From Rathayibacter sp. VKM Ac-2760 (lineage in GTDB: Bacteria; Actinomycetota; Actinomycetes; Actinomycetales; Microbacteriaceae), in the NCBI RefSeq assembly GCF_009834185.1, contig NZ_CP047173.1, forward strand, positions 1,391,725 to 1,455,724: a DNA stretch of 64,000 nt, read 5' to 3'. Below the pieces are notes generated by a model. The model made no database searches and was not told the origin of the DNA. It saw only the letters and a program-made list of their open reading frames with translations. Both the position numbers and the translations under genes were made by a program. This document shows positions 3,995-60,038 of this stretch, in pieces (position 1 is the first letter of the stretch; the number at the start of each line of letters is the position of its first letter).

Positions 3995-4073
3995 CACTCC
4001 GCGAGATGCCACTTGTGAGCGGGCGACACGGCGTGTCGCGCTCACAAGTGGCATCTCGCGGGAGGGGGTCAGG
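3995..4073. repeat. palindromic REP-like element, family 1 copy 2
   Basis: Same 22-bp arms and inner palindrome as copy 1. It lies between the convergent recQ and DUF2795 3' ends. Confidence 0.85.
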
Positions 4074-4260
4074 CCTGGGAGACGGCGGAGCTCACGTCGG
4101 TGGGCTTGTCGTAGTCGCCCTCGGGGATCGCGCGGAGGGCGTCGAGGACGTCGGCGCCGGCGCCCTGCTTCTCGGCGGCCTCGACGATGGTGTCCTTCGA
4201 GGCCGGGTAGTCGATCCCGGAGAGGTGCTTCTGGATCTCGATCGGGGTGGGTACAGCCAT
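4069..4260 (-). CDS. DUF2795-family small conserved protein
   Basis: 63-aa ORF (MAVPTPIEIQKHLSGIDYPASKDTIVEAAEKQGAGADVLDALRAIPEGDYDKPTDVSSAVSQA) with good codon bias. It is hidden inside a 541-aa shadow ORF in the track. Confidence 0.7.
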   Translation of the reverse strand: MAVPTPIEIQKHLSGIDYPASKDTIVEAAEKQGAGADVLDALRAIPEGDYDKPTDVSSAVSQA

Positions 4261-16847: not shown

Positions 16848-16922
16848 CGCACAACATCAGCTGAGAGGTGGGTCCCTCCCCCCACAGCGGAGGCCCTCCC
16901 TTCTCAGCTGATGTTGTGCGGG
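16848..16922. repeat. palindromic element, family 2 copy B
   Basis: CACAACATCAGCTGAGAGG...CCTTCTCAGCTGATGTTGTG, nearly perfectly palindromic including the loop. It lies 3' of the ligase. Confidence 0.8.
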
Positions 16923-18132: not shown

Positions 18133-18206
18133 ACCGCGAGATGCCACTTATGAGCGGCGACACCGGCGTGTCGCGCTCATAAGTGGCATCTCGCGGGAGG
18201 GGTCGG
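18133..18206. repeat. palindromic REP-like element, family 1 copy 3
   Basis: CGCGAGATGCCACTTATGAGCG...CGCTCATAAGTGGCATCTCGCG, between the convergent GT9 and SDR genes. Arm mismatches are compensated (G to A on both arms), so the stem is preserved. Confidence 0.85.
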
Positions 18207-18243
18207 ACGCGGGTGAGCGTCAGACGTCCTGGGCGTCAGCGGG

Positions 18244-27352: not shown

Positions 27353-28200
27353 CCACCTCCGGCTCGCAGATCCGCGTCCGGCTCGCTGAATCTCCCGTTT
27401 CCCGCGAGCCGAGCCTGTTTCCGCGAGCCGAGCCTCGACCCGTGGCACCTCCGGCTCGCAGAATGACGTCCGGCTCGCCGAATCGCCTGATTCCCGCGAG
27501 CCGAACCGGTTTCCGCGAGCCGAACCTCGGCCCGCGTCACCTCCGGCTCGCAGATTCGCGTCCGGCTCGCTGAATCGTCTGAATCCGGCGAGCCGAACGG
27601 GTTTCCGCGAGCCGAACCTCGGTCCTCGTCACCTCCGGCTCGCAGATTCGCGTCCGGCTCGCTGAATCGCCCGTTTCCCGCGAGCCGAACGGATTTCCGC
27701 GAGCCGAGCCTCGACCCGTGGCACCTCCGGCTCGCAGAATGACGTCCGGCTCGCCGAATCGCCCGATTCCCGCGAGCCGGACCGGTTTCCGCGAGCCGAA
27801 TCTCGGTCCGAGTCACCTCCGGCTCGCAGATTCGCGTCCGGCTCGCTGAATCGCCCATTTCCCGCGAGCCGGACCGGTTTCCGCGAGCCGAACCGCGACC
27901 CGCGTCACCTCGGGCTCGCAGAATGACGTCCGGCTCGCTGAATCACCTGATTCCCGCGAGCCGAACGGGTTTCCGCGAGCCGAACCTCGGTCCGCGTCAC
28001 CTCCGGCTCGCAGATTGACGTCCGGCTCGCCGAATCGCCTGATTCCCGCGAGCCGGACCGGTTTCCACGAGCCGAGCCTCGGCCCGCGTCACCTCCGGCT
28101 CGCAGATTGACGTCCGGCTCGCCGAATCGCCCGTTTCCCGCGAGCCGAACCGGTTTCCGCGAGCCCGACCTCGGCCCGCGCCACCTCCGCCCCGCAGACC
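27353..28200. repeat. 92-bp tandem repeat array, 9 units plus a degenerate 10th
   Basis: Unit starts at 27353, 27445, 27537, 27629, 27721, 27813, 27905, 27997 and 28089. Each unit is CACCTCCGGCTCGCAGAnnnnnnTCCGGCTCGCyGAATCGCCyGwTTCCCGCGAGCCGAACCGGTTTCCGCGAGCCGAACCTCGGyCCGCGT, i.e. two CCGGCTCGC and two GCGAGCCG blocks per unit (cruciform-capable). Two unit subtypes alternate (GATTCGCG versus GAATGACG). Confidence 0.9.
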
Positions 28201-28302: not shown

Positions 28303-29844
28303 ATGTCTGAGCTCACCCCGCCCTCCGATCGCGCCCACGACGCGCACCCGTTCACCACCGCGACCGGGAGCGACGTCCGCGTCCGCTTCTGCCCGTCCCC
28401 GACCGGGACGCCGCACGTCGGCCTCATCCGCACCGCCCTGTTCAACTGGGCCTACGCGCGGCACACCGGAGGCACCTTCGTCTTCCGGATCGAGGACACC
28501 GACGCGGCCCGCGACAGCGAGGAGAGCTACGAGCAGCTCATCGACGCGCTGCAGTGGCTGAAGCTCGACTGGGACGAGGGCGTCGGAGTCGGCGGCCCGC
28601 ACGGCCCGTACCGCCAGTCCGAGCGCAGCGACGTCTACACCGACGTCATCCAGCGCCTGCTCGCCTCCGGCCACCTCTACGAGAGCTACTCGAACGCGGA
28701 GGAGATCGACGCCCGCAACGAGGCGGCCGGCCGCGCCAAGCAGCACGGCTACGACAACCACGACCGCGACCTCACCGAGGAGCAGCGCGCCGCCTTCCGC
28801 GCCGAGGGCCGCAGCCCCGCGCTGCGCCTGCGCGTCCCGGACGCCGACCTCTCCTTCGACGACCTCGTCCGCGGCGAGATCACCTTCCCGGCCGGCTCGT
28901 TCAGCGACTTCGTCGTCGTCCGCCCCAACGGCCAGCCGCTCTACACGCTGGTGAACCCGGTCGACGACGCGCTCATGCAGATCACCCACGTCCTCCGCGG
29001 CGAGGACATCCTGCCCTCCACCGCGCGCCAGATCGCGCTGTACCACGCGCTGATCGACATCGGAGTGACGACGTTCGTCCCGCGCTTCGGTCACCTCCCC
29101 TACGTGATGGGGGAGGGCAACAAGAAGCTCTCCAAGCGCGACCCCTCGGCCAACCTCTTCCACCACCGCGACCGCGGCTTCATCCCCGAGGGCCTGGTCA
29201 ACTACCTCGCCCTGCTCGGCTGGTCGCTCACCCACGACCGCGACGTCTTCTCGATCGACGAGATGATCGCCGCCTTCGACGTCGCCGACGTGAACCCCAA
29301 CCCGGCCCGCTTCGACCTCAAGAAGGCCGAGTCGATCAACGGCGACCACATCCGCCTGCTCGCGGTCGACGACTTCACCGAGCGCACCATCCCCTACCTG
29401 ATCGCCGCCGGCGTTCTCGAGGGCCGGCCGACCGCCGACCAGCGCGCCGTCCTCGACGCCGCCGCCCCGCTCGTCCAGGAGCGGATCGGCCTGCTCGGCG
29501 AGGCGCCCGGCATGCTCGGCTTCCTCTTCACCACCGCCGACGCCCTCTCCTACGACGAGGACGCGCTGAAGGGCCTGCCCGCGAACGCCGGCGAGGTCCT
29601 CGCCGCATCGATCGGCGCCCTCGAGCTCGTGCCCGAGGGGGAGTGGCTGACCGCTTCGATCCAGGAGGCGCTCGCCGGCGCCCTGATCGAGGGCCTGGGC
29701 CTCAAGCCCCGCATCGCCTACGGGCCGTTGCGCACCGCGATCTCGGGCCGCCGCGTCTCGCCGCCGCTGTTCGAGTCGATGGAGATCCTCGGCAAGTCCG
29801 AGTCGATCGCCCGCCTCGCCCGCCTCGCCGACACCCGGAGCTGA
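28303..29844 (+). CDS. gltX: glutamate--tRNA ligase
   Basis: Class I aaRS HIGH ([15 protein letters not shown]) and KMSKS (KLSKR) motifs. Full-length GluRS. Confidence 0.95.
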
Positions 29845-30960: not shown

Positions 30961-31032
30961 TGGGGTATGGTGTAATTGGCAACACGACTGATTCTGGTTC
31001 AGTTGTTCTTGGTTCGAGTCCAGGTACCCCAG
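30961..31032 (+). tRNA. tRNA-Gln (anticodon CUG)
   Basis: Hand-folded: acceptor TGGGGTA/TACCCCA (U1-A72), U8, D stem GTGT/ACAC, anticodon stem ACTGA/TCAGT with loop TTCTGGT (U33, CUG), T arm CTTGG-TTCGAGT-CCAGG, discriminator G. No encoded CCA. Confidence 0.85.
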
Positions 31033-31240
31033 CACTTCTCCTCCTCGCCCTGAGGATCCTCGCCCGGCTGTCGCCCGCCGCTGTTCCGGCTGTGTCGTTC
31101 CGGCAGCGCCGCGCGTCTCGCGCAGGGCCGCTGCATCCCCCGCCCGGCCGACGCCCGACTCCTCCCGGCATGCCACGATGAACCTGTACATCGCTCAGAA
31201 ACCCGCCTCCCGCGGGTTCCGAGAAGGGGGTCTCTCGTCC

Positions 31241-33679: not shown

Positions 33680-33769
33680 CCGCCGAGGACGCACCCCGTT
33701 CGCTGCCCATCGCACAGCGAGGTGCAGGTCGTCACGGTCGGAGGGCGACCGATCAGCCGGAGGAGGCTC

Positions 33770-33925
33770 CATGAAGCGCAAAGACGTGACCGCCGAGGCT
33801 CTCCGCCGTGCCGCAGAGCGATCGACGCGTGCCTCGGCCGCCTTGGAGAACCGCTCGGTGCCGACCGATACCGTCCGCTCCGACAGGGTGGCTCGATTCC
33901 TCGCTGCCCGGGGGTCCCGCGCCTG
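33770..33925 (+). CDS. hypothetical small protein (51 aa)
   Basis: ATG with a strong GGAGGAGG RBS. The ORF is below the track's length cutoff. There is no family recognition. Confidence 0.3.
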
Positions 33926-34120
33926 ACCGGCGTCGGTCCCGCGTGCACGGGTGATGCTCTGCACGCTGATCGTGTGGCAGATGCTTCCCGACGCGGTCGC
34001 GGTGAAGGGCGGCATAGGTGTGAAGCTCCGTCTCGGTGAGCCAGGCGACAAGTCCGCGGACGGGAAGGGCGCGAGCGACGCGGTCACGCCGCCCGCTCGC
34101 ACAGCCCGCCGCGCAACATC

Positions 34121-34184
34121 AGCCCGGAGCCGACCTCAGCCACGATGGCGGACGGCGACCGCTCTCAGCCGACGTTCTGCGCGG
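34121..34184. repeat. palindromic element, family 2 copy E (degenerate)
   Basis: GCGCAACATCAGCC...GCCACGATGGC...CTCAGCCGACGTTCTGCGC. The CAGCTG core is mutated to CAGCC on both arms (compensatory). It lies upstream of the TA pair. Confidence 0.65.
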
Positions 34185-34255
34185 CCCGCGCGCGCCGTCG
34201 GTCTCGTCCAACACTCCGATCGCTCGGAATCGAGTTCCGTATTACGATAATCGTC

Positions 34256-34519
34256 ATGAGCGACGGGGAGACGATCGACGGCCGGCCGGTGACGGAGGAG
34301 CAGATCGCAGAGTGGGCGGCGGAGGCGGAGCGCGGCTACGACATCGATGCCCTCAAGGCGAGAGGCCGAGGACGCCCCGGTAGAGGCGCTCTCCCCTCGC
34401 AGGTCGTCGCCGTTCGGCTCACCCTGGACGAGCTCGCCGCACTCGACGAGCGCGCCGCCCGGGAGCACAAGACGCGCTCCGAGGTCGTCCGCGAGGCGCT
34501 CGCCGCGTCGGCGGCGTGA
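34256..34519 (+). CDS. ribbon-helix-helix (CopG/BrnA-like) antitoxin
   Basis: C-terminal RHH (VVAVRLTLDELAALDERAAREHKTRSEVVREAL). AT-richer promoter/operator upstream (GTATTACGATAATCG). It overlaps the toxin start (GTGA). Confidence 0.75.
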   Translation: MSDGETIDGRPVTEEQIAEWAAEAERGYDIDALKARGRGRPGRGALPSQVVAVRLTLDELAALDERAAREHKTRSEVVREALAASAA

Positions 34520-34755
34520 AGGTCCACCCTTCGGCGCTCAAGCACGGGATCTCGGCGGACGACGCCGTCCACGCCGCAGACCTGGCGCTCTGGGTCGAGG
34601 AACTCGACGACGACTCTCCGGCGCGTCAGCTCCGCCTGGGCTTCGATACCCGCGGTCGGCTCCTCGAGACGGTCGTCCTGATCTTCGACAGCGGCCACGA
34701 ACTCGTCATTCACGCGATGAAGGCCCGCCCGGGCATGATCGAGCTCCTGCCCTGA
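34516..34755 (+). CDS. BrnT-like (DUF497) toxin
   Basis: 79 aa. KHGIS...RLGFDTRGRLLETVVLIFDSGHELVIHAMKARP matches the BrnT/DUF497 pattern. Confidence 0.65.
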   Translation: MKVHPSALKHGISADDAVHAADLALWVEELDDDSPARQLRLGFDTRGRLLETVVLIFDSGHELVIHAMKARPGMIELLP

Positions 34756-34875
34756 CGGGCCGCTGACGGGTCGTTCAGGCCGACGCGCGCGTCGGTGCCG
34801 GTCAGGGGCGATACGTCTGTGCGGCTCCCCGCTGCGTCCTCCCTCTTCCGAACGTCGGCGACTTCTCGCGCCCCC

Positions 34876-36594
34876 TCAGAAGTAGCGCGCCAGGTGCTCG
34901 CGGAGCGCCTCGTCGCAGACGTGCACGTACGTCCCCCTGATGCCGCGCGTGAGCAGCACCGTGTAGATGTTGCGGACGTACGCGAGCAGGTCCTCGTCGC
35001 TGTAGGTGATGCCGAGCTTCGGGTTGTTCTCGCGCCCCTTCTTGTCGAAGTAGTGCGAGCGGTCGAAGACGACGCGTCCCGAGGCGGTGTCGAAGCGCAG
35101 ATCGCGGCCGATGATGACGCCCGCGTAGTTGAGGTCGTAGCCCTGCACCGTGTGGATCGAGCCGACCTCGTCGATCGCGCCGGGGGAGTTGATCCAGTCG
35201 CGCTGCGTCTGATTCCAGCGGAGCGACTCGTCGCCGATCACGATGTCGAAGGCGCTCCTGTCCGTCTTCGTGACCCACTTCCACGCGTAGCCCGCGACCA
35301 GTCGTGAGAGGCCGTGCTCCCGGTCGCGCTCGACGATCGAGCGGCGCAGCTCGCCCGGATCGTCGAAGAAGCGCAGGTCGTACTCGCCGAAGTCCTCGCG
35401 CGCCGACGGCGGATCATCGGACAGCGCGGCGCGGACGTAGCCGACGTAGTCCTTCTCCGCGGCGATGCGCATCTGCGAGCGGAGCGGGTAGACCCGGCCC
35501 TCGGCCGACGCCTCCGCGAGGACGGCGCGGGTGACCGTCGCGGGCAGGTCCGCTGGGCGGACGGTCTGCGCGGTGTCCAGCATCAGGATCGTGTGCCTGC
35601 TCCGCGCGCGGATCCAGTCCAGCTGCGTGTACTCGAGCGAGTCCTCGCCGAACAGCCGCTCGTTGATGTCGATGAACTTGCGGTTGAGCGGCCCCGAGGG
35701 CTGGTTCGCCCGCTGGCTGAGCCGGTGCGCTTCGTCGACGAGGAGCAGATCGAACGGCTCGTCGCTCTCGCCGACCTGGAAGGGCGTCAGCACCAGGTCC
35801 TTCGACAGTCCCGGGGTGAGGCTGAAGACCCGGGAGATCGACCCGCGCAGCGACTGCTGCGGCACGACGAGGCCGACCCGCAGCGTCGACAGCAGCTCCG
35901 CGTGGCCCGGGGTGAAGAACTCGCTGAAGATCGAGTCGCCGTCCAGCGGCTCCTCCGGGTCGTGCTCGCGGATGTCCTGCAGCAGCTTCAGCAGGTAGAT
36001 GGCGACGACGGTCTTCCCGGTCCCCGGATCGCCCTGCACGACGACGGTGCTGGGACCGCCGGACTCGAGGTCGGTGAACAGCCCTTCGAGGATGTCCTCG
36101 ACCGCGATCGCCTGATCGTGGTTCAGCGCCTTGAACGGAGACAGCTTGAAGAGATCGCTGTTGACGATCTCGGGGAGCGTCCGCTGGAAGAGCTTCTCCT
36201 CGGTGCGGAGGACCTCGAACACCTCGTCGAACGTCCGGCGGTAGGACGCGCGGTCGAAGTAGTCGGCGTCGGTGATGCCGGCGTTGTGATTGAGGACAGC
36301 CAGGCGGCCCTCCCCCGAGAGCATCCGCAGGAGGAACGATTCGAGGTCGAGGCAGGCCGACTTGTTGAAGGTGTCGTCGAGGACGACCCGCACCCGGTCC
36401 AGCCGGCTCTTCTCCGGCGAGTCGAGGTGCTGGCGCAGTCGCCCCTCGGCGTTCAGCGACTCGCCGACGTAGACCTCCGAGGCGCTGTCGAGCACGTAGA
36501 CGACGGGCCAGTTCCGGTGCCGCGGGTCGGCGGCGCCCCACACGCGCACCCGATCGGAGTCGAACGGGAGTCGCTCGACGCTAAAGCCGGTCAT
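34876..36594 (-). CDS. GIY-YIG nuclease domain plus DUF2075 (Schlafen-like AAA ATPase/helicase) protein
   Basis: N-terminal GIY-YIG motif (VVYVLDSASEVYVGESLNAEGRLRQH), then a P-loop (GDPGTGKTVV) and DExx (LLLVDEAHRL) within a DUF2075-type ATPase. Regional GC is about 63% against about 71% for its flanks. Confidence 0.85.
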   Translation of the reverse strand: MTGFSVERLPFDSDRVRVWGAADPRHRNWPVVYVLDSASEVYVGESLNAEGRLRQHLDSPEKSRLDRVRVVLDDTFNKSACLDLESFLLRMLSGEGRLAVLNHNAGITDADYFDRASYRRTFDEVFEVLRTEEKLFQRTLPEIVNSDLFKLSPFKALNHDQAIAVEDILEGLFTDLESGGPSTVVVQGDPGTGKTVVAIYLLKLLQDIREHDPEEPLDGDSIFSEFFTPGHAELLSTLRVGLVVPQQSLRGSISRVFSLTPGLSKDLVLTPFQVGESDEPFDLLLVDEAHRLSQRANQPSGPLNRKFIDINERLFGEDSLEYTQLDWIRARSRHTILMLDTAQTVRPADLPATVTRAVLAEASAEGRVYPLRSQMRIAAEKDYVGYVRAALSDDPPSAREDFGEYDLRFFDDPGELRRSIVERDREHGLSRLVAGYAWKWVTKTDRSAFDIVIGDESLRWNQTQRDWINSPGAIDEVGSIHTVQGYDLNYAGVIIGRDLRFDTASGRVVFDRSHYFDKKGRENNPKLGITYSDEDLLAYVRNIYTVLLTRGIRGTYVHVCDEALREHLARYF

Positions 36595-36907
36595 GCCTGG
36601 TGCTTCTCCCGCGAGCCTTCTCCACCGGGTACTTGGCCCTGGTCCTCTCGAGCTTCGCGAGGACGATCTCGCCCGCGTCCACCCCGAGTCGGTCGGCGAG
36701 CAGGAGAGAGTAGGTCAGCACGTCCGCGAGCTCGTCGACGGCCGAGGGGAGGTCGCCCTCGCCCCACTGGAAGCACTCGAGCAGCTCGCCCGACTCGATG
36801 CTGATGCTCTTCGCGAGGTTCTCCGGCGTGTGGAACTGCGCCCAGTCGCGCTCGCGCACGAAGGCGCGGAGGGCGTCGAGGACCTCGTCATCGGGCATGG
36901 CTGCCAA
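36581..36907 (-). CDS. MazG-like nucleoside triphosphate pyrophosphohydrolase
   Basis: 108 aa with an EExxE metal motif (ESGELLE) and a MazG all-alpha fold signature. It overlaps the DUF2075 gene start by 14 nt. Confidence 0.8.
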   Translation of the reverse strand: MAAMPDDEVLDALRAFVRERDWAQFHTPENLAKSISIESGELLECFQWGEGDLPSAVDELADVLTYSLLLADRLGVDAGEIVLAKLERTRAKYPVEKARGRSTRHDRL

Positions 36908-37066
36908 CCTACAGCGGCGGTGCGGCGGTCACCCTGCCCCCGCTCGCTTCGACGCCCGAGATCCGCCGAGCGTGCGATCGCGGCGAGGCCCCCCCTTCGC
37001 GTCCACTGCCTCGCCACCCGCCACCGACCGGACCCGAGCGGGGCTTCGCCGCGCCGCCAGGCCCTG

Positions 37067-37546
37067 TCACATGTCCGGCCGGCCGAGTTCCTTCCGCAAC
37101 TGCAGAGCCGTCGGCTCGTAGCCGAGCGACTCGTACAGCCCGCGGGCCGCGGTGTTGAAGCCGAAGACGTTCAGCGCGAGCGCCCGGTAGCCGCGCGAGC
37201 GGGCGTGCTCCTCCGCCAGCAGCATCGCCGCGCGGCCGAACCCGCGGCCCCGCTCGGCCGGGTCGACCTCGACGTCCCAGACGTAGGCGACGCCCTCGAG
37301 GTCCTGCGGGTGCGGGCCGACCCAGAGCACCCCGACCGGGCGTCCGTCGTCGAGGATCCGCAGCAGGTCGTGGCCCGGCGCGAGGTCGCCGCCCGGGAAG
37401 AGCCGCTCGTCGTTCGCGTCCGCGTTCCGCACCGCGGCGGCCTCGTCGTCGCCCGCTCGGATCCGATCAGCGACGTACGTCCTGCGTTGGACGGACCTCC
37501 ACGCCGTCAGTTCGTCGGGTGGGAGCGGCGCGAGGGAGACGGACAT
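37067..37546 (-). CDS. GNAT-family N-acetyltransferase
   Basis: GNAT motif A (RGRGFGRAAM). An alternative GTG start at 37561 is possible. Confidence 0.8.
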   Translation of the reverse strand: MSVSLAPLPPDELTAWRSVQRRTYVADRIRAGDDEAAAVRNADANDERLFPGGDLAPGHDLLRILDDGRPVGVLWVGPHPQDLEGVAYVWDVEVDPAERGRGFGRAAMLLAEEHARSRGYRALALNVFGFNTAARGLYESLGYEPTALQLRKELGRPDM

Positions 37547-37571
37547 GCCCCACGGTCCCACACCGCCGGCA

Positions 37572-37640
37572 CGACGTCAGCTGAGGCACCGGCTCAACGC
37601 CGATGGTGGATGACGAGCGGTCTCAGCTGACGTCGTGCGC
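37572..37640. repeat. palindromic element, family 2 copy C
   Basis: ACGTCAGCTGAGG...GCCGATGGTGGATGACGAGCGG...TCTCAGCTGACGT, between the permease stop and the GNAT start. Confidence 0.8.
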
Positions 37641-37661
37641 CGCCGAGGCGCCGGAGTCCGC

Positions 37662-46025: not shown

Positions 46026-46096
46026 ACAGAACATCAGCCGGGAGCGGACCTCCTCCACCATCGTGGACGAGGTCGCTTCTCAGCTGATCTTGTGAA
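46026..46096. repeat. palindromic element, family 2 copy D (minus-strand orientation)
   Basis: Minus strand reads CACAAGATCAGCTGAGAAG...CCACGATGGTGGAGGAGGTC...CGGCTGATGTTCTG. It lies between convergent gene ends. Confidence 0.8.
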
Positions 46097-58526: not shown

Positions 58527-58604
58527 CACTCCGCGAGATGCCACTTGCGCGCGCCTTCCTCGGCGTGTCGCGCTCACAAGTGGCATCTCGCGGAGAGGTG
58601 CAGG
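58527..58604. repeat. palindromic REP-like element, family 1 copy 4
   Basis: CGCGAGATGCCACTTG...CACAAGTGGCATCTCGCG, between convergent aspA and adaA-alkA. The alkA-frame stop codon TGA lies inside the element. Confidence 0.85.
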
Positions 58605-60038
58605 GCGGCGTAGCTGCGCCAGGGGGACCAGGGGCGGGAGGAGTCGGCGAGGGCTCGAGGGGTCGAGGGGAGACCGAGGGCCGCGGCGCCGCGGCGGACG
58701 GGACCGTCGTCGGCGAGCAGCACGTCCGGGTCGCCGGTGATCCGTGCCGCGACGGAGCCGGCGGCCACCGGATCGATGCCGTCCACGGCGAGCAGGCGTT
58801 CCAGCAACTCCTCGCGACTCGCGCCGGCGTCGAGCCGCAGCTCGCCGGCGGCGAGGAGCGCGGCGACGCGGAGGACGGTCCCGACTCCGCGAGCGCCTGC
58901 CAGCGGCTCCGCGCCGCGGTCGGCGATCGCCGCGGGCGAGGAAGGCGCGGGTGATCGCCCCACTCGCGAGCGCGGCGGGCAGCGGCTCGCCGAGGGCCGC
59001 GACCAGCCGGGTCAGCGCCGCGCGGGCCGCGACCGGAGCACCGCGCCCGATCAGCGTGCGGAGCAGGGTCTCCGCCGGGTCGACGGAGCCCGGCAGGCGG
59101 ATCCCGGGCCTCGCGGCGACGAGCGGAGCGAGCACCGGATCCGCCGCGAGCGCCTCGTCGATCGCCGCGGAGTCGGCGTCGAGGTCGAGCAGACGGCGCA
59201 CCCGCGCGACCAGCGGGCCGACGTCGGCGACGGAGGCGAGCGTCGCAGTGCAGCGCACCGCGTCGCCGTCGAGCTCGAGCCGGGCGATCGCCGGGCCGCC
59301 GGGCAGCGCGAGCGAGCGGGCGTACCGGTCCGGCCCTGCCTCCTCGACCCCCGGCAGGGCGGTGCCCCCGAGCGCGGTGAGCACGCCCGCGTCGAACGGC
59401 GCCCGCACCGGCAGGCGCAGCTCGAGCGTCGTCGCGCCCGCCTGCACGGCCGCCGCCGAGCGGTCGCCGCGGGTCGAGGCGCGCACGGCGCTGGGGCTGC
59501 GCTCGTACACCTCCTGGATCGTCGCGTTGAACTGCCGGATGCTCGCGAAGCCCGCCGCGAACGCCACCTCCGACACCGGCAGCTCGGTGCCGGTGAGCAG
59601 CAGCCGGGCCGTCTGCGCGCGCTGGGCCCTGGCCAGGGCGAGCGGAGGCGCGCCGAGCTCGTCGCGCAGGATCCGGCCGAGCTGGCGGGTGCCGTAGCCG
59701 AGTCGTGCGGCGAGCCCGGCGACACCCTCGCGGTCGACCACCCCGTCGCCGATCAGCCGCATCGCCCGGGCGGCGGTGTCGTCGCGGAGGTTCCACTCCG
59801 GCGAGCCGGGCACGGCGTCCGGCAGGCAGCGCTTGCACGCGCGCAGCCCCGCCTCGTGCGCGGCGGCCGCGGTCGGATAGAAGCGGACGTTGCCGGGCCG
59901 CGGAGTCGCGGCGGGGCAGCTCGGGCGGCAGTAGATGCCGGTCGAGTGCACGCCGGTGAGGAAGCGGCCGTCGAAGCGGGAGTCGCGCGAGGCGACCGCG
60001 CGGTAGCGCTGCTCGAAGAGCGGGTCGACGTCCGTCAT
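58574..60038 (-). CDS. AdaA-type methylphosphotriester sensor/AraC regulator fused to AlkA-like DNA-3-methyladenine glycosylase (apparent +1 frameshift near 58940-58960)
   Basis: N-terminal Ada Zn-Cys4 (CRPSCPA...CKRC), an AraC HTH, then an AlkA N-domain. The HhH-GPD part (ELRLDAGASREELLERLLAVDGIDPVAAG...WSPWRSYAALHL) is in the +1 frame. Junction GCCTTCCTCGCC versus expected GCCTTCCCCTCGCC points to a missing C in a C-run. Confidence 0.7.

Follow-up and report, generated by a model that had tools for sequence, protein, structure and literature searches.

A conserved gene pair encoding a MazG-like pyrophosphohydrolase and a GIY-YIG-DUF2075 nuclease-helicase in Rathayibacter sp. VKM Ac-2760: a candidate two-gene module against phages or other invading DNA

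Two described bacterial defence systems, Nhi and Nhi-like, consist of an N-terminal nuclease fused to a C-terminal DUF2075 helicase of superfamily 1B (SF1B). Nhi, described in Staphylococcus epidermidis (SERP2475), relies on both of its activities to break down phage replication intermediates (Bari et al. 2022); it is found in defence islands, has spread by horizontal gene transfer, and expression of one of its homologues is toxic. Nhi-like, a nuclease and DUF2075 protein of B. cereus FSL H8-0482, is a validated defence system (Millman et al. 2022). The helicase module of these proteins is shared with the human antiviral Schlafen proteins, and the control of such nuclease-DUF2075 helicases is poorly understood. 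Here we analyse a gene pair of Rathayibacter sp. VKM Ac-2760, located in a stretch of 64,000 nucleotides of contig NZ_CP047173.1 (hereafter the window), in which a gene for a MazG-like nucleoside triphosphate (NTP) pyrophosphohydrolase overlaps the gene of a 572-aa protein carrying a GIY-YIG nuclease and a DUF2075 helicase. A first-pass annotation, made from the nucleotide sequence alone, had placed both genes in an accessory islet at positions 33700-37660 and proposed them as a candidate defence module. The 572-aa protein has the general layout of Nhi and Nhi-like, a common architecture rather than a membership, as the nuclease of these two systems is of the PD-(D/E)XK type (HsdR-like) instead of GIY-YIG, and both are single-gene systems devoid of a MazG partner.

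A precedent for the pairing itself is present in the supplementary list of tested candidates of Millman et al. (2022), which includes two unnamed “Pyrophosphatase” + DUF2075 systems from Bacillota. SG192, from Bacillus firmus LK28, associates a 98-aa MazG-like protein with a 643-aa DUF2075 protein, and SG193, from B. thuringiensis Lr3/2, a 619-aa DUF2075 protein with a 108-aa pyrophosphatase, to which the MazG-like protein of Rathayibacter is 42% identical (E 7e-32). Like the present pair, they place a pyrophosphatase of about 100 aa next to a DUF2075 protein of about 600 aa whose N-terminal domain resembles a nuclease, and either gene may come first; unlike the actinobacterial pair, their DUF2075 proteins have an N-terminus resembling PD-(D/E)XK nucleases (..VIVELKQW.., an ELK motif), as far as the partial sequences available indicate. 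The same list reports that the cloning of SG193 failed and marks SG192 with “x”, a sign that we read as no protection from the “v” carried by the validated systems. A literature search for DUF2075 together with MazG returned no papers, and the prior candidate surfaced only in this supplementary table. Besides, PF09848 (DUF2075) stands on a defence Pfam list and an earlier paper mentioned DUF2075 fused to GIY-YIG next to DUF3427 enzymes. The first-pass annotation was thus right that the pairing does not correspond to a named system, while its novelty does not stand, “Pyrophosphatase” + DUF2075 having already been listed. The module is a variant, with a GIY-YIG head and mainly from actinobacteria, of an unvalidated candidate family that others had flagged before.

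The MazG-like gene lies on the reverse strand at 36581..36898 and encodes 105 aa from the annotated ATG; the mechanically called open reading frame (ORF) extends over 36581-36907 with a TTG start at 36907. Its family, as proposed initially, is well supported (PF12643 at 2e-15, 57.2 bits for a gathering cut-off of 27), but not the length of 108 aa given at that time. Its matches among the sequences of the PDB include the archaeal 4qgp (5e-17) and DCTPP1 (2a3q/6sqw, 6e-16), which identifies the product as a putative all-alpha NTP pyrophosphohydrolase of the DCTPP1/RS21-C6 type. The acidic motif was first described as EExxE and turns out to be ExxExxE...ExxD, as in DCTPP1: these metal ligands (E35, E38, E41, E56 and D59) are kept in 94-95 of 95 MazG partners, and the Trp and His of the base pocket of DCTPP1/RS21-C6 are also conserved. 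The protein differs from DCTPP1/RS21-C6 and from 4QGP by a loop between helices 2 and 3 that is about 10 residues shorter, and by the overlap of its gene with that of a nuclease-helicase.

The latter gene (34876..36594, reverse strand) encodes the 572-aa protein, 100% identical to the “DUF2075 domain-containing protein” of strain VKM Ac-2760, in which a GIY-YIG nuclease is fused to a DUF2075 helicase of Schlafen group-3 type (SF1B), in agreement with the domain composition first announced. PF09848 matches residues 182-561 over profile positions 2-354 of 354, at 3e-66 and with 224.6 bits for a cut-off of 24. The search of PDB sequences with the profile of the 572-aa family gave no match at E <= 0.01, for which reason a fold comparison was used. 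The AlphaFold2 model (pLDDT 81.8) had the SF1B helicases RecD2, Dna2, Upf1, nsp13, SLFN11 and Dda as top Foldseek matches, with a probability of 1.0 for RecD2, Dna2, Upf1, SLFN11 and Dda, in agreement with an SF1B fold. In 65 diverse homologues, representatives sharing 30-51% identity, the helicase residues G188, G191, G193 and K194 of Walker A (GxGKT), D287-E288 of the DE(A)H motif, Q343, R376 and R550 are invariant. The GIY-YIG catalytic core (approximately aa 27-106; 36277..36516, reverse strand) has the beta-beta-alpha-beta-alpha core of the superfamily, with the tyrosines of GIY and YIG, the Arg, the Glu and the Asn; its fold is closest to that of UvrC, PF01541 matches 53 of the 65 representatives, and Y42, G44, E45, R52, H56, E85 and N102 are invariant in all of them. 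As judged from these residues, the three catalytic centres of the pair (GIY-YIG, helicase and MazG) are predicted to be intact. Domain searches detected no modified-base reader (SRA, PUA, DUF3427) in the 572-aa protein, which sets it apart from type IV enzymes such as the SauUSI-type proteins (PLD-helicase-DUF3427), McrBC and the GIY-YIG 5hmC-specific PD-T4-3; a link of this protein to modified DNA would be purely hypothetical. No specific family was found for either gene in an NCBIfam search.

The stop of the MazG-like gene and the start of the nuclease-helicase gene overlap by 14 nt, as first noted (36581..36594, reverse strand; ATGACCGGCTTTAG), and a Shine-Dalgarno-like motif, GGGAGA, is located 10-17 nt upstream. 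Such an arrangement implies translational coupling. Using two search patterns, which set a lower bound, at least 421 relatives were found among 185,579 species genomes, and the loci of the best 80 of these 421 were analysed. The MazG-like gene is immediately upstream in all of them, and the overlap is exactly 14 nt in 74 of the 80, even though the overlapping bases and the stop codon (TAG, TAA or TGA) vary. Starting conversely from MazG homologues, a DUF2075 gene was found next door in three cases out of three (Cellulomonas hominis, Kocuria marina and one further contig), so that the question raised by the first-pass annotation, whether MazG-like and DUF2075 genes are neighbours elsewhere, is answered positively from both sides. 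The clustering of all flanking ORFs of the 80 loci revealed no third conserved gene; these neighbour clusters are approximate, as the gene caller used for the flanks joins the permease to an antisense stretch. The distance matrices of the MazG and DUF2075 proteins are correlated (r = 0.77), a value reached by none of 999 permutations in a Mantel test. Altogether, these comparisons support the view that the MazG-like and GIY-YIG-DUF2075 genes form a functionally coupled two-gene unit in this actinobacterial clade.

The identity of the 572-aa protein is about 75% to its homologues of Arthrobacter and Leucobacter and about 60% to those of the confamilial Curtobacterium and Cryobacterium, values at odds with taxonomy which indicate that the pair spread horizontally as a unit. 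Two genomes of this set are particular. On the contig NZ_MWZD01000024.1 of Leucobacter massiliensis, two copies of the pair (L015 and L016) have opposite orientations and an identical gene order around them, and may represent an inverted duplication of the module. In Arthrobacter sp. ATA002 (L050:8001-9714), the DUF2075 match starts about 285 nt past the end of the MazG-like gene and the called ORF is shorter, with 494 aa; this nuclease-helicase gene may be frameshifted or decaying.

The pairing also exists at a larger distance, with 25-40% identity. The MazG-like gene is upstream in two metagenome representatives (P0376 and P0430) and on plasmid pBMB431 of B. thuringiensis HD-1; it is downstream, in reversed order, on a mobilizable plasmid of Ligilactobacillus salivarius and in P0448, with in the latter an 8-nt overlap. 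Two other representatives, P0487 and P0470, lie on contigs too short for a statement on adjacency. Among 13 viral contigs of IMG/VR, nine have a MazG gene within 1 kb, including next to DUF2075 proteins devoid of a GIY-YIG alignment. Conversely, GIY-YIG-DUF2075 genes occur without MazG in a prophage (P0405), beside Cas9-Cas1 (P0516) and beside McrBC (on a B. wiedmannii plasmid). The existence of several such genes indicates that the MazG partner is frequent but not obligatory.

The pair is frequently found in the vicinity of defence genes. A SauUSI-type type IV enzyme (PLD, helicase and DUF3427; mREase_IV of PADLOC, E = 0) adjoins it in 8 of the 80 loci, and the other defence-type neighbours include McrC with an Mrr_N-AAA_5 McrB-like partner, NERD and NERD-UvrD proteins, and MkoA-like helicases. 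Twenty of the 80 loci contain one or more of six confirmed defence families, a raw count that is suggestive rather than an enrichment statistic. Likewise, most of the distant contexts are rich in defence genes, a raw and equally suggestive observation, with ThsB-TIR, SocA, AEP-SNF2, RloB/AAA_15-21, HNH, a zeta toxin and a type I restriction-modification system accompanied by an integrase. In one metagenomic defence island (L083:5001-8631), another DUF2075 gene, distinct from the first and encoding 499 aa, comes directly after the pair together with a DUF2075 fragment, and SocA, AEP-SNF2 and AAA_15/21 + RloB genes flank them.

These characteristics lead us to propose, with slightly more confidence than doubt, that the pair is a conserved and translationally coupled two-gene module, most likely directed against phages or other invading DNA. 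By analogy with Nhi and Nhi-like, the nuclease-helicase would be the effector, loading on foreign DNA that is replicating or aberrant in another way, translocating with ATP and cutting through its GIY-YIG site. The small pyrophosphohydrolase would work on the deoxynucleotide pool, acting on dCTP or on base-modified deoxynucleoside triphosphates (dNTPs) if it resembles DCTPP1 in its substrates. In doing so it could starve or unmask phage DNA synthesis, bar modified bases from the host DNA, or set the level of a nucleotide gating the nuclease, and the two enzymes would then cooperate by depletion, unmasking, protection of self-DNA or gating. Anti-phage activity and these substrates, like any physical complex of the two proteins and the direction in which one would regulate the other, are what we infer from this arrangement. 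A co-inherited and catalytically intact partner of the DCTPP1 type points to the dNTP pool, and possibly to modified dNTPs, as a controlling or co-targeted variable of the nuclease-DUF2075 helicases. The pair is moreover common in Actinomycetota, in which few defence systems have been validated.

A bolder version of this proposal, which we put forward only tentatively, would make the pair a genuine and very widespread two-component immunity of Actinomycetota, Bacillota, plasmids and prophages. In this version the DCTPP1-type enzyme would specifically destroy phage-made modified dNTPs (such as 5hm-dCTP, 5hm-dUTP, dZTP or 7-deaza-dGTP), the coupled nuclease-helicase would then destroy phage replication intermediates, and GIY-YIG and PD-(D/E)XK would be interchangeable as nuclease heads. 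The host DNA would thereby be kept clean and the phage stripped of its protective modification, a logic that would be new, and the negative result that we read for SG192 would be explained by an unsuitable phage panel or host.

Several observations weigh against a role in defence. The PADLOC v2 run returned no named system in the window, and no full-length model for the MazG-like or the 572-aa gene, which have weak partial matches only: its Nhi model aligns with residues 157-205 of the 572-aa protein (the P-loop) at E 4.4e-4, which falls short of a call, and relatives of this protein have partial matches to the Nhi and AbiO models at 1e-8 to 1e-12. The absence of the pair from PADLOC v2 also means that the defence annotation of such genomes currently skips it. 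The “x” of SG192 and the GIY-YIG-DUF2075 genes devoid of MazG point in the same unfavourable direction, and the neighbour tallies given above stand as raw counts. For a defence gene, the sequence is conserved to an unusual degree, with 60-90% across families and a fixed length of 572 aa, and the guanine + cytosine content at third codon positions (GC3) of the pair, 0.93-0.96, is fully host-like, being equal to that of the neighbouring genes. Within genera the pair furthermore keeps a constant place next to core genes, which are gltX and tRNA-Gln(CTG) for seven Rathayibacter species and for Plantibacter, and argC-argJ-argB for nine Brevibacterium species. Lastly, some contexts are of housekeeping nature, P0448 being near ThyA, DHFR, a DNA-alkylation-repair protein and MutS2.

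Much of this would fit a housekeeping pair devoted to nucleotide hygiene, in which the MazG-like enzyme would clean non-canonical or modified dNTPs and the GIY-YIG-helicase would excise the same lesions or misincorporated bases. The homology with DCTPP1, the proximity of the GIY-YIG fold to UvrC, the high conservation, the host-like GC3, the stable synteny with core genes within genera, the surroundings of P0448 and the apparent lack of phage protection by SG192, as we read it, are all in line with repair, and a pair combining pool sanitation with excision would itself be new. We nevertheless hold this explanation to be rather unlikely, because the distribution is patchy (at least 421 matches in 185,579 species genomes), the similarities are incongruent with taxonomy, the module is carried by megaplasmids, a mobilizable plasmid, a prophage and viral contigs, and it lies repeatedly beside restriction, Abi, toxin-antitoxin (TA) and CRISPR genes. 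An addiction-type module seems still less probable: the nuclease-helicase would be toxic and the co-translated MazG-like protein would neutralise it or remove its activating nucleotide, any effect on phages being secondary. The close translational coupling, found whichever gene comes first, the location of the pair among TA cassettes, the toxicity of one Nhi homologue and the failed cloning of SG193 would be expected from such a module, although a cloning failure has many possible causes. It accounts poorly for the GIY-YIG-DUF2075 genes that have no MazG partner, one inside a prophage and others next to Cas9 and to McrBC, and for the strict conservation of the MazG catalytic residues, for which a pure binding antitoxin would have no need.

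A last alternative concerns the locus more than the function of the pair. The first-pass annotation saw in this region an accessory islet of lower GC content, bracketed by repeat elements called family-2 and containing an orphan ORF, a TA pair and the two-gene operon; read as one recently acquired 4-kb mobile unit, this frame is very improbable and largely refuted. The dip in GC content is real but less pronounced than announced: the value, reported as 62-66% against about 71% for the flanks, is in fact 70.1% for 33700-37660 and 68.1% for the MazG/DUF2075 pair, compared with 74.0% for the window and 70.2% for a host permease gene. As GC3 is host-like, this dip stems from the first two codon positions and reflects the amino-acid composition, and there is no compositional sign of a recent import of the pair. 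Domain and repeat scans found no integrase, transposase or flanking direct repeats around the region. The family-2 element is an imperfect palindrome of about 75 nt, REP- or MITE-like (repetitive extragenic palindrome or miniature inverted-repeat transposable element), with the core CAACATCAGCTGAGAG ... CTCTCAGCTGATGTTG; its arms have 8 matches versus 0.2 expected by chance, and its best copy folds at z -6.6. It is dispersed over five sites of the 64 kb (7240, 16852-16916, 34107-34185, 37566-37641 and 46029-46092). Of the two copies thought to form the borders, the well-formed one at 37566..37641, between the permease stop and the start of an acetyltransferase gene (fold -55.6 kcal/mol, z -4.0), does lie at the right edge, whereas the other at 34107..34185, between the 51-aa ORF and the antitoxin gene, is degenerate (fold z -0.76) and interior. 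These two palindromes, the location of a tRNA-Gln at 3.8 kb and the absence of segment 33681-34874 from strain VKM Ac-2856, in which a lipoprotein gene is 26 nt from the DUF2075 stop, are what speaks for a single islet.

Alignment with seven sister Rathayibacter species shows on the contrary that the pair block has sharp homology borders of its own, from about 34867 to 36917, and that different cassettes accompany it. VKM Ac-2856 has a Phd/YefM-like pair on the other side of the module, VKM Ac-2857 an AbiEii cassette, and VKM Ac-2760 the ribbon-helix-helix (RHH) gene and 79-aa toxin described below; flanking cassettes of the sister strains consist of a Phd/YefM-like gene with a 113-aa partner (L001:6781-7574), a 188-aa gene with an AbiEii toxin (L002:9838-11303; PF08843, 5e-35) and a RelS-like toxin (L003:568-807). 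Because the TA cargo and its position vary around a stable pair, the locus is not one mobile unit; it is a small hotspot of interchangeable TA/Abi cassettes. The tRNA-Gln(CTG) (30961-31033, forward strand) is the sole match of an Rfam scan of the window, in which the family-2 palindrome matched no curated RNA family. The pair is 3' of this tRNA gene in the Rathayibacter loci L001, L004 and L007, and in Plantibacter (L009) only about 345 nt separate the two, which suggests an old insertion hotspot, though no integrase is present. As a general integration site the tRNA was not retained, being suggestive in Rathayibacter and Plantibacter only, with no tRNA nearby in the other genera and no integrase.

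The small genes next to the pair form a separate type II TA cassette, one of the several interchangeable TA/Abi cargos found beside the Rathayibacter pair. The RHH antitoxin gene (34256..34519, forward strand; 87 aa; PF01402 at 2.9e-7), named “ribbon-helix-helix protein, CopG family” by NCBI, and the toxin gene (34516..34755, forward strand; 79 aa), named “toxin”, overlap by 4 nt (GTGA), as originally reported. The only Pfam match of the toxin, BrnT_toxin (PF04365), is weak, with 13.8 bits for a gathering score of 34.5 (E 0.077). Its family profile matches, over the full length (residues 1-78, E 1e-6), chain C of PDB 9SDC, which is RelS (Rv2663) of M. tuberculosis, a BrnT-fold RNase of the RelE superfamily cutting the 16S rRNA in its anti-Shine-Dalgarno region (PMC13284704). 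The residues K9, H10, H66 and R71, invariant in the 79-aa family, align with K9, H10, H64 and R69 of RelS, which are important for its toxicity (PMC13284704). The initial description of a TA pair with a BrnT-type toxin fold is therefore sound and can be made more exact, the toxin being a predicted BrnT-fold RNase of RelS-like type. As compared with the known RelS-RelI (Rv2663-Rv2664) and BrnT-BrnA systems, it has the full-length match and the Lys-His/His/Arg equivalents of RelS, but its antitoxin, of RHH type, is encoded upstream, in contrast to RelI, a helix-turn-helix protein encoded downstream.

Two other genes complete the region. The GNAT acetyltransferase gene (37067..37546, reverse strand; PF00583 at 2e-18) adjoins the pair in only five of the 80 loci, all from Rathayibacter. 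Its inclusion in an operon with the pair was rejected, as oppositely oriented TA genes separate them in other strains; it is a conserved Rathayibacter neighbour standing outside the module. The orphan small ORF of 51 aa (33771..33926, forward strand) exists as a reading frame, as first announced, but is doubtful as a gene. It was called in a Logan assembly and is annotated as hypothetical in R. festucae; it has weak coding statistics (GC3 0.79, GC content at second codon positions 0.65), no Pfam match and no homologue in any of the 80 loci, and is outside the GenBank protein series QHC58214-58219.

The window contains other repeats. A tandem array at 27354-28198, in the gap upstream of gltX (28303-29844), comprises 9.2 copies of a 92-nt unit with 87% matches (Tandem Repeats Finder score 1249); its period is not a multiple of 3 and each unit has the inverted motifs CGGCTCGC/GCGAGCCG. 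A second hairpin repeat family, CGCGAGATGCCACTTGTG...CACAAGTGGCATCTCGCG, is present in four intergenic copies at 2007-2099, 4000-4092, 18135-18227 and 58532-58624.

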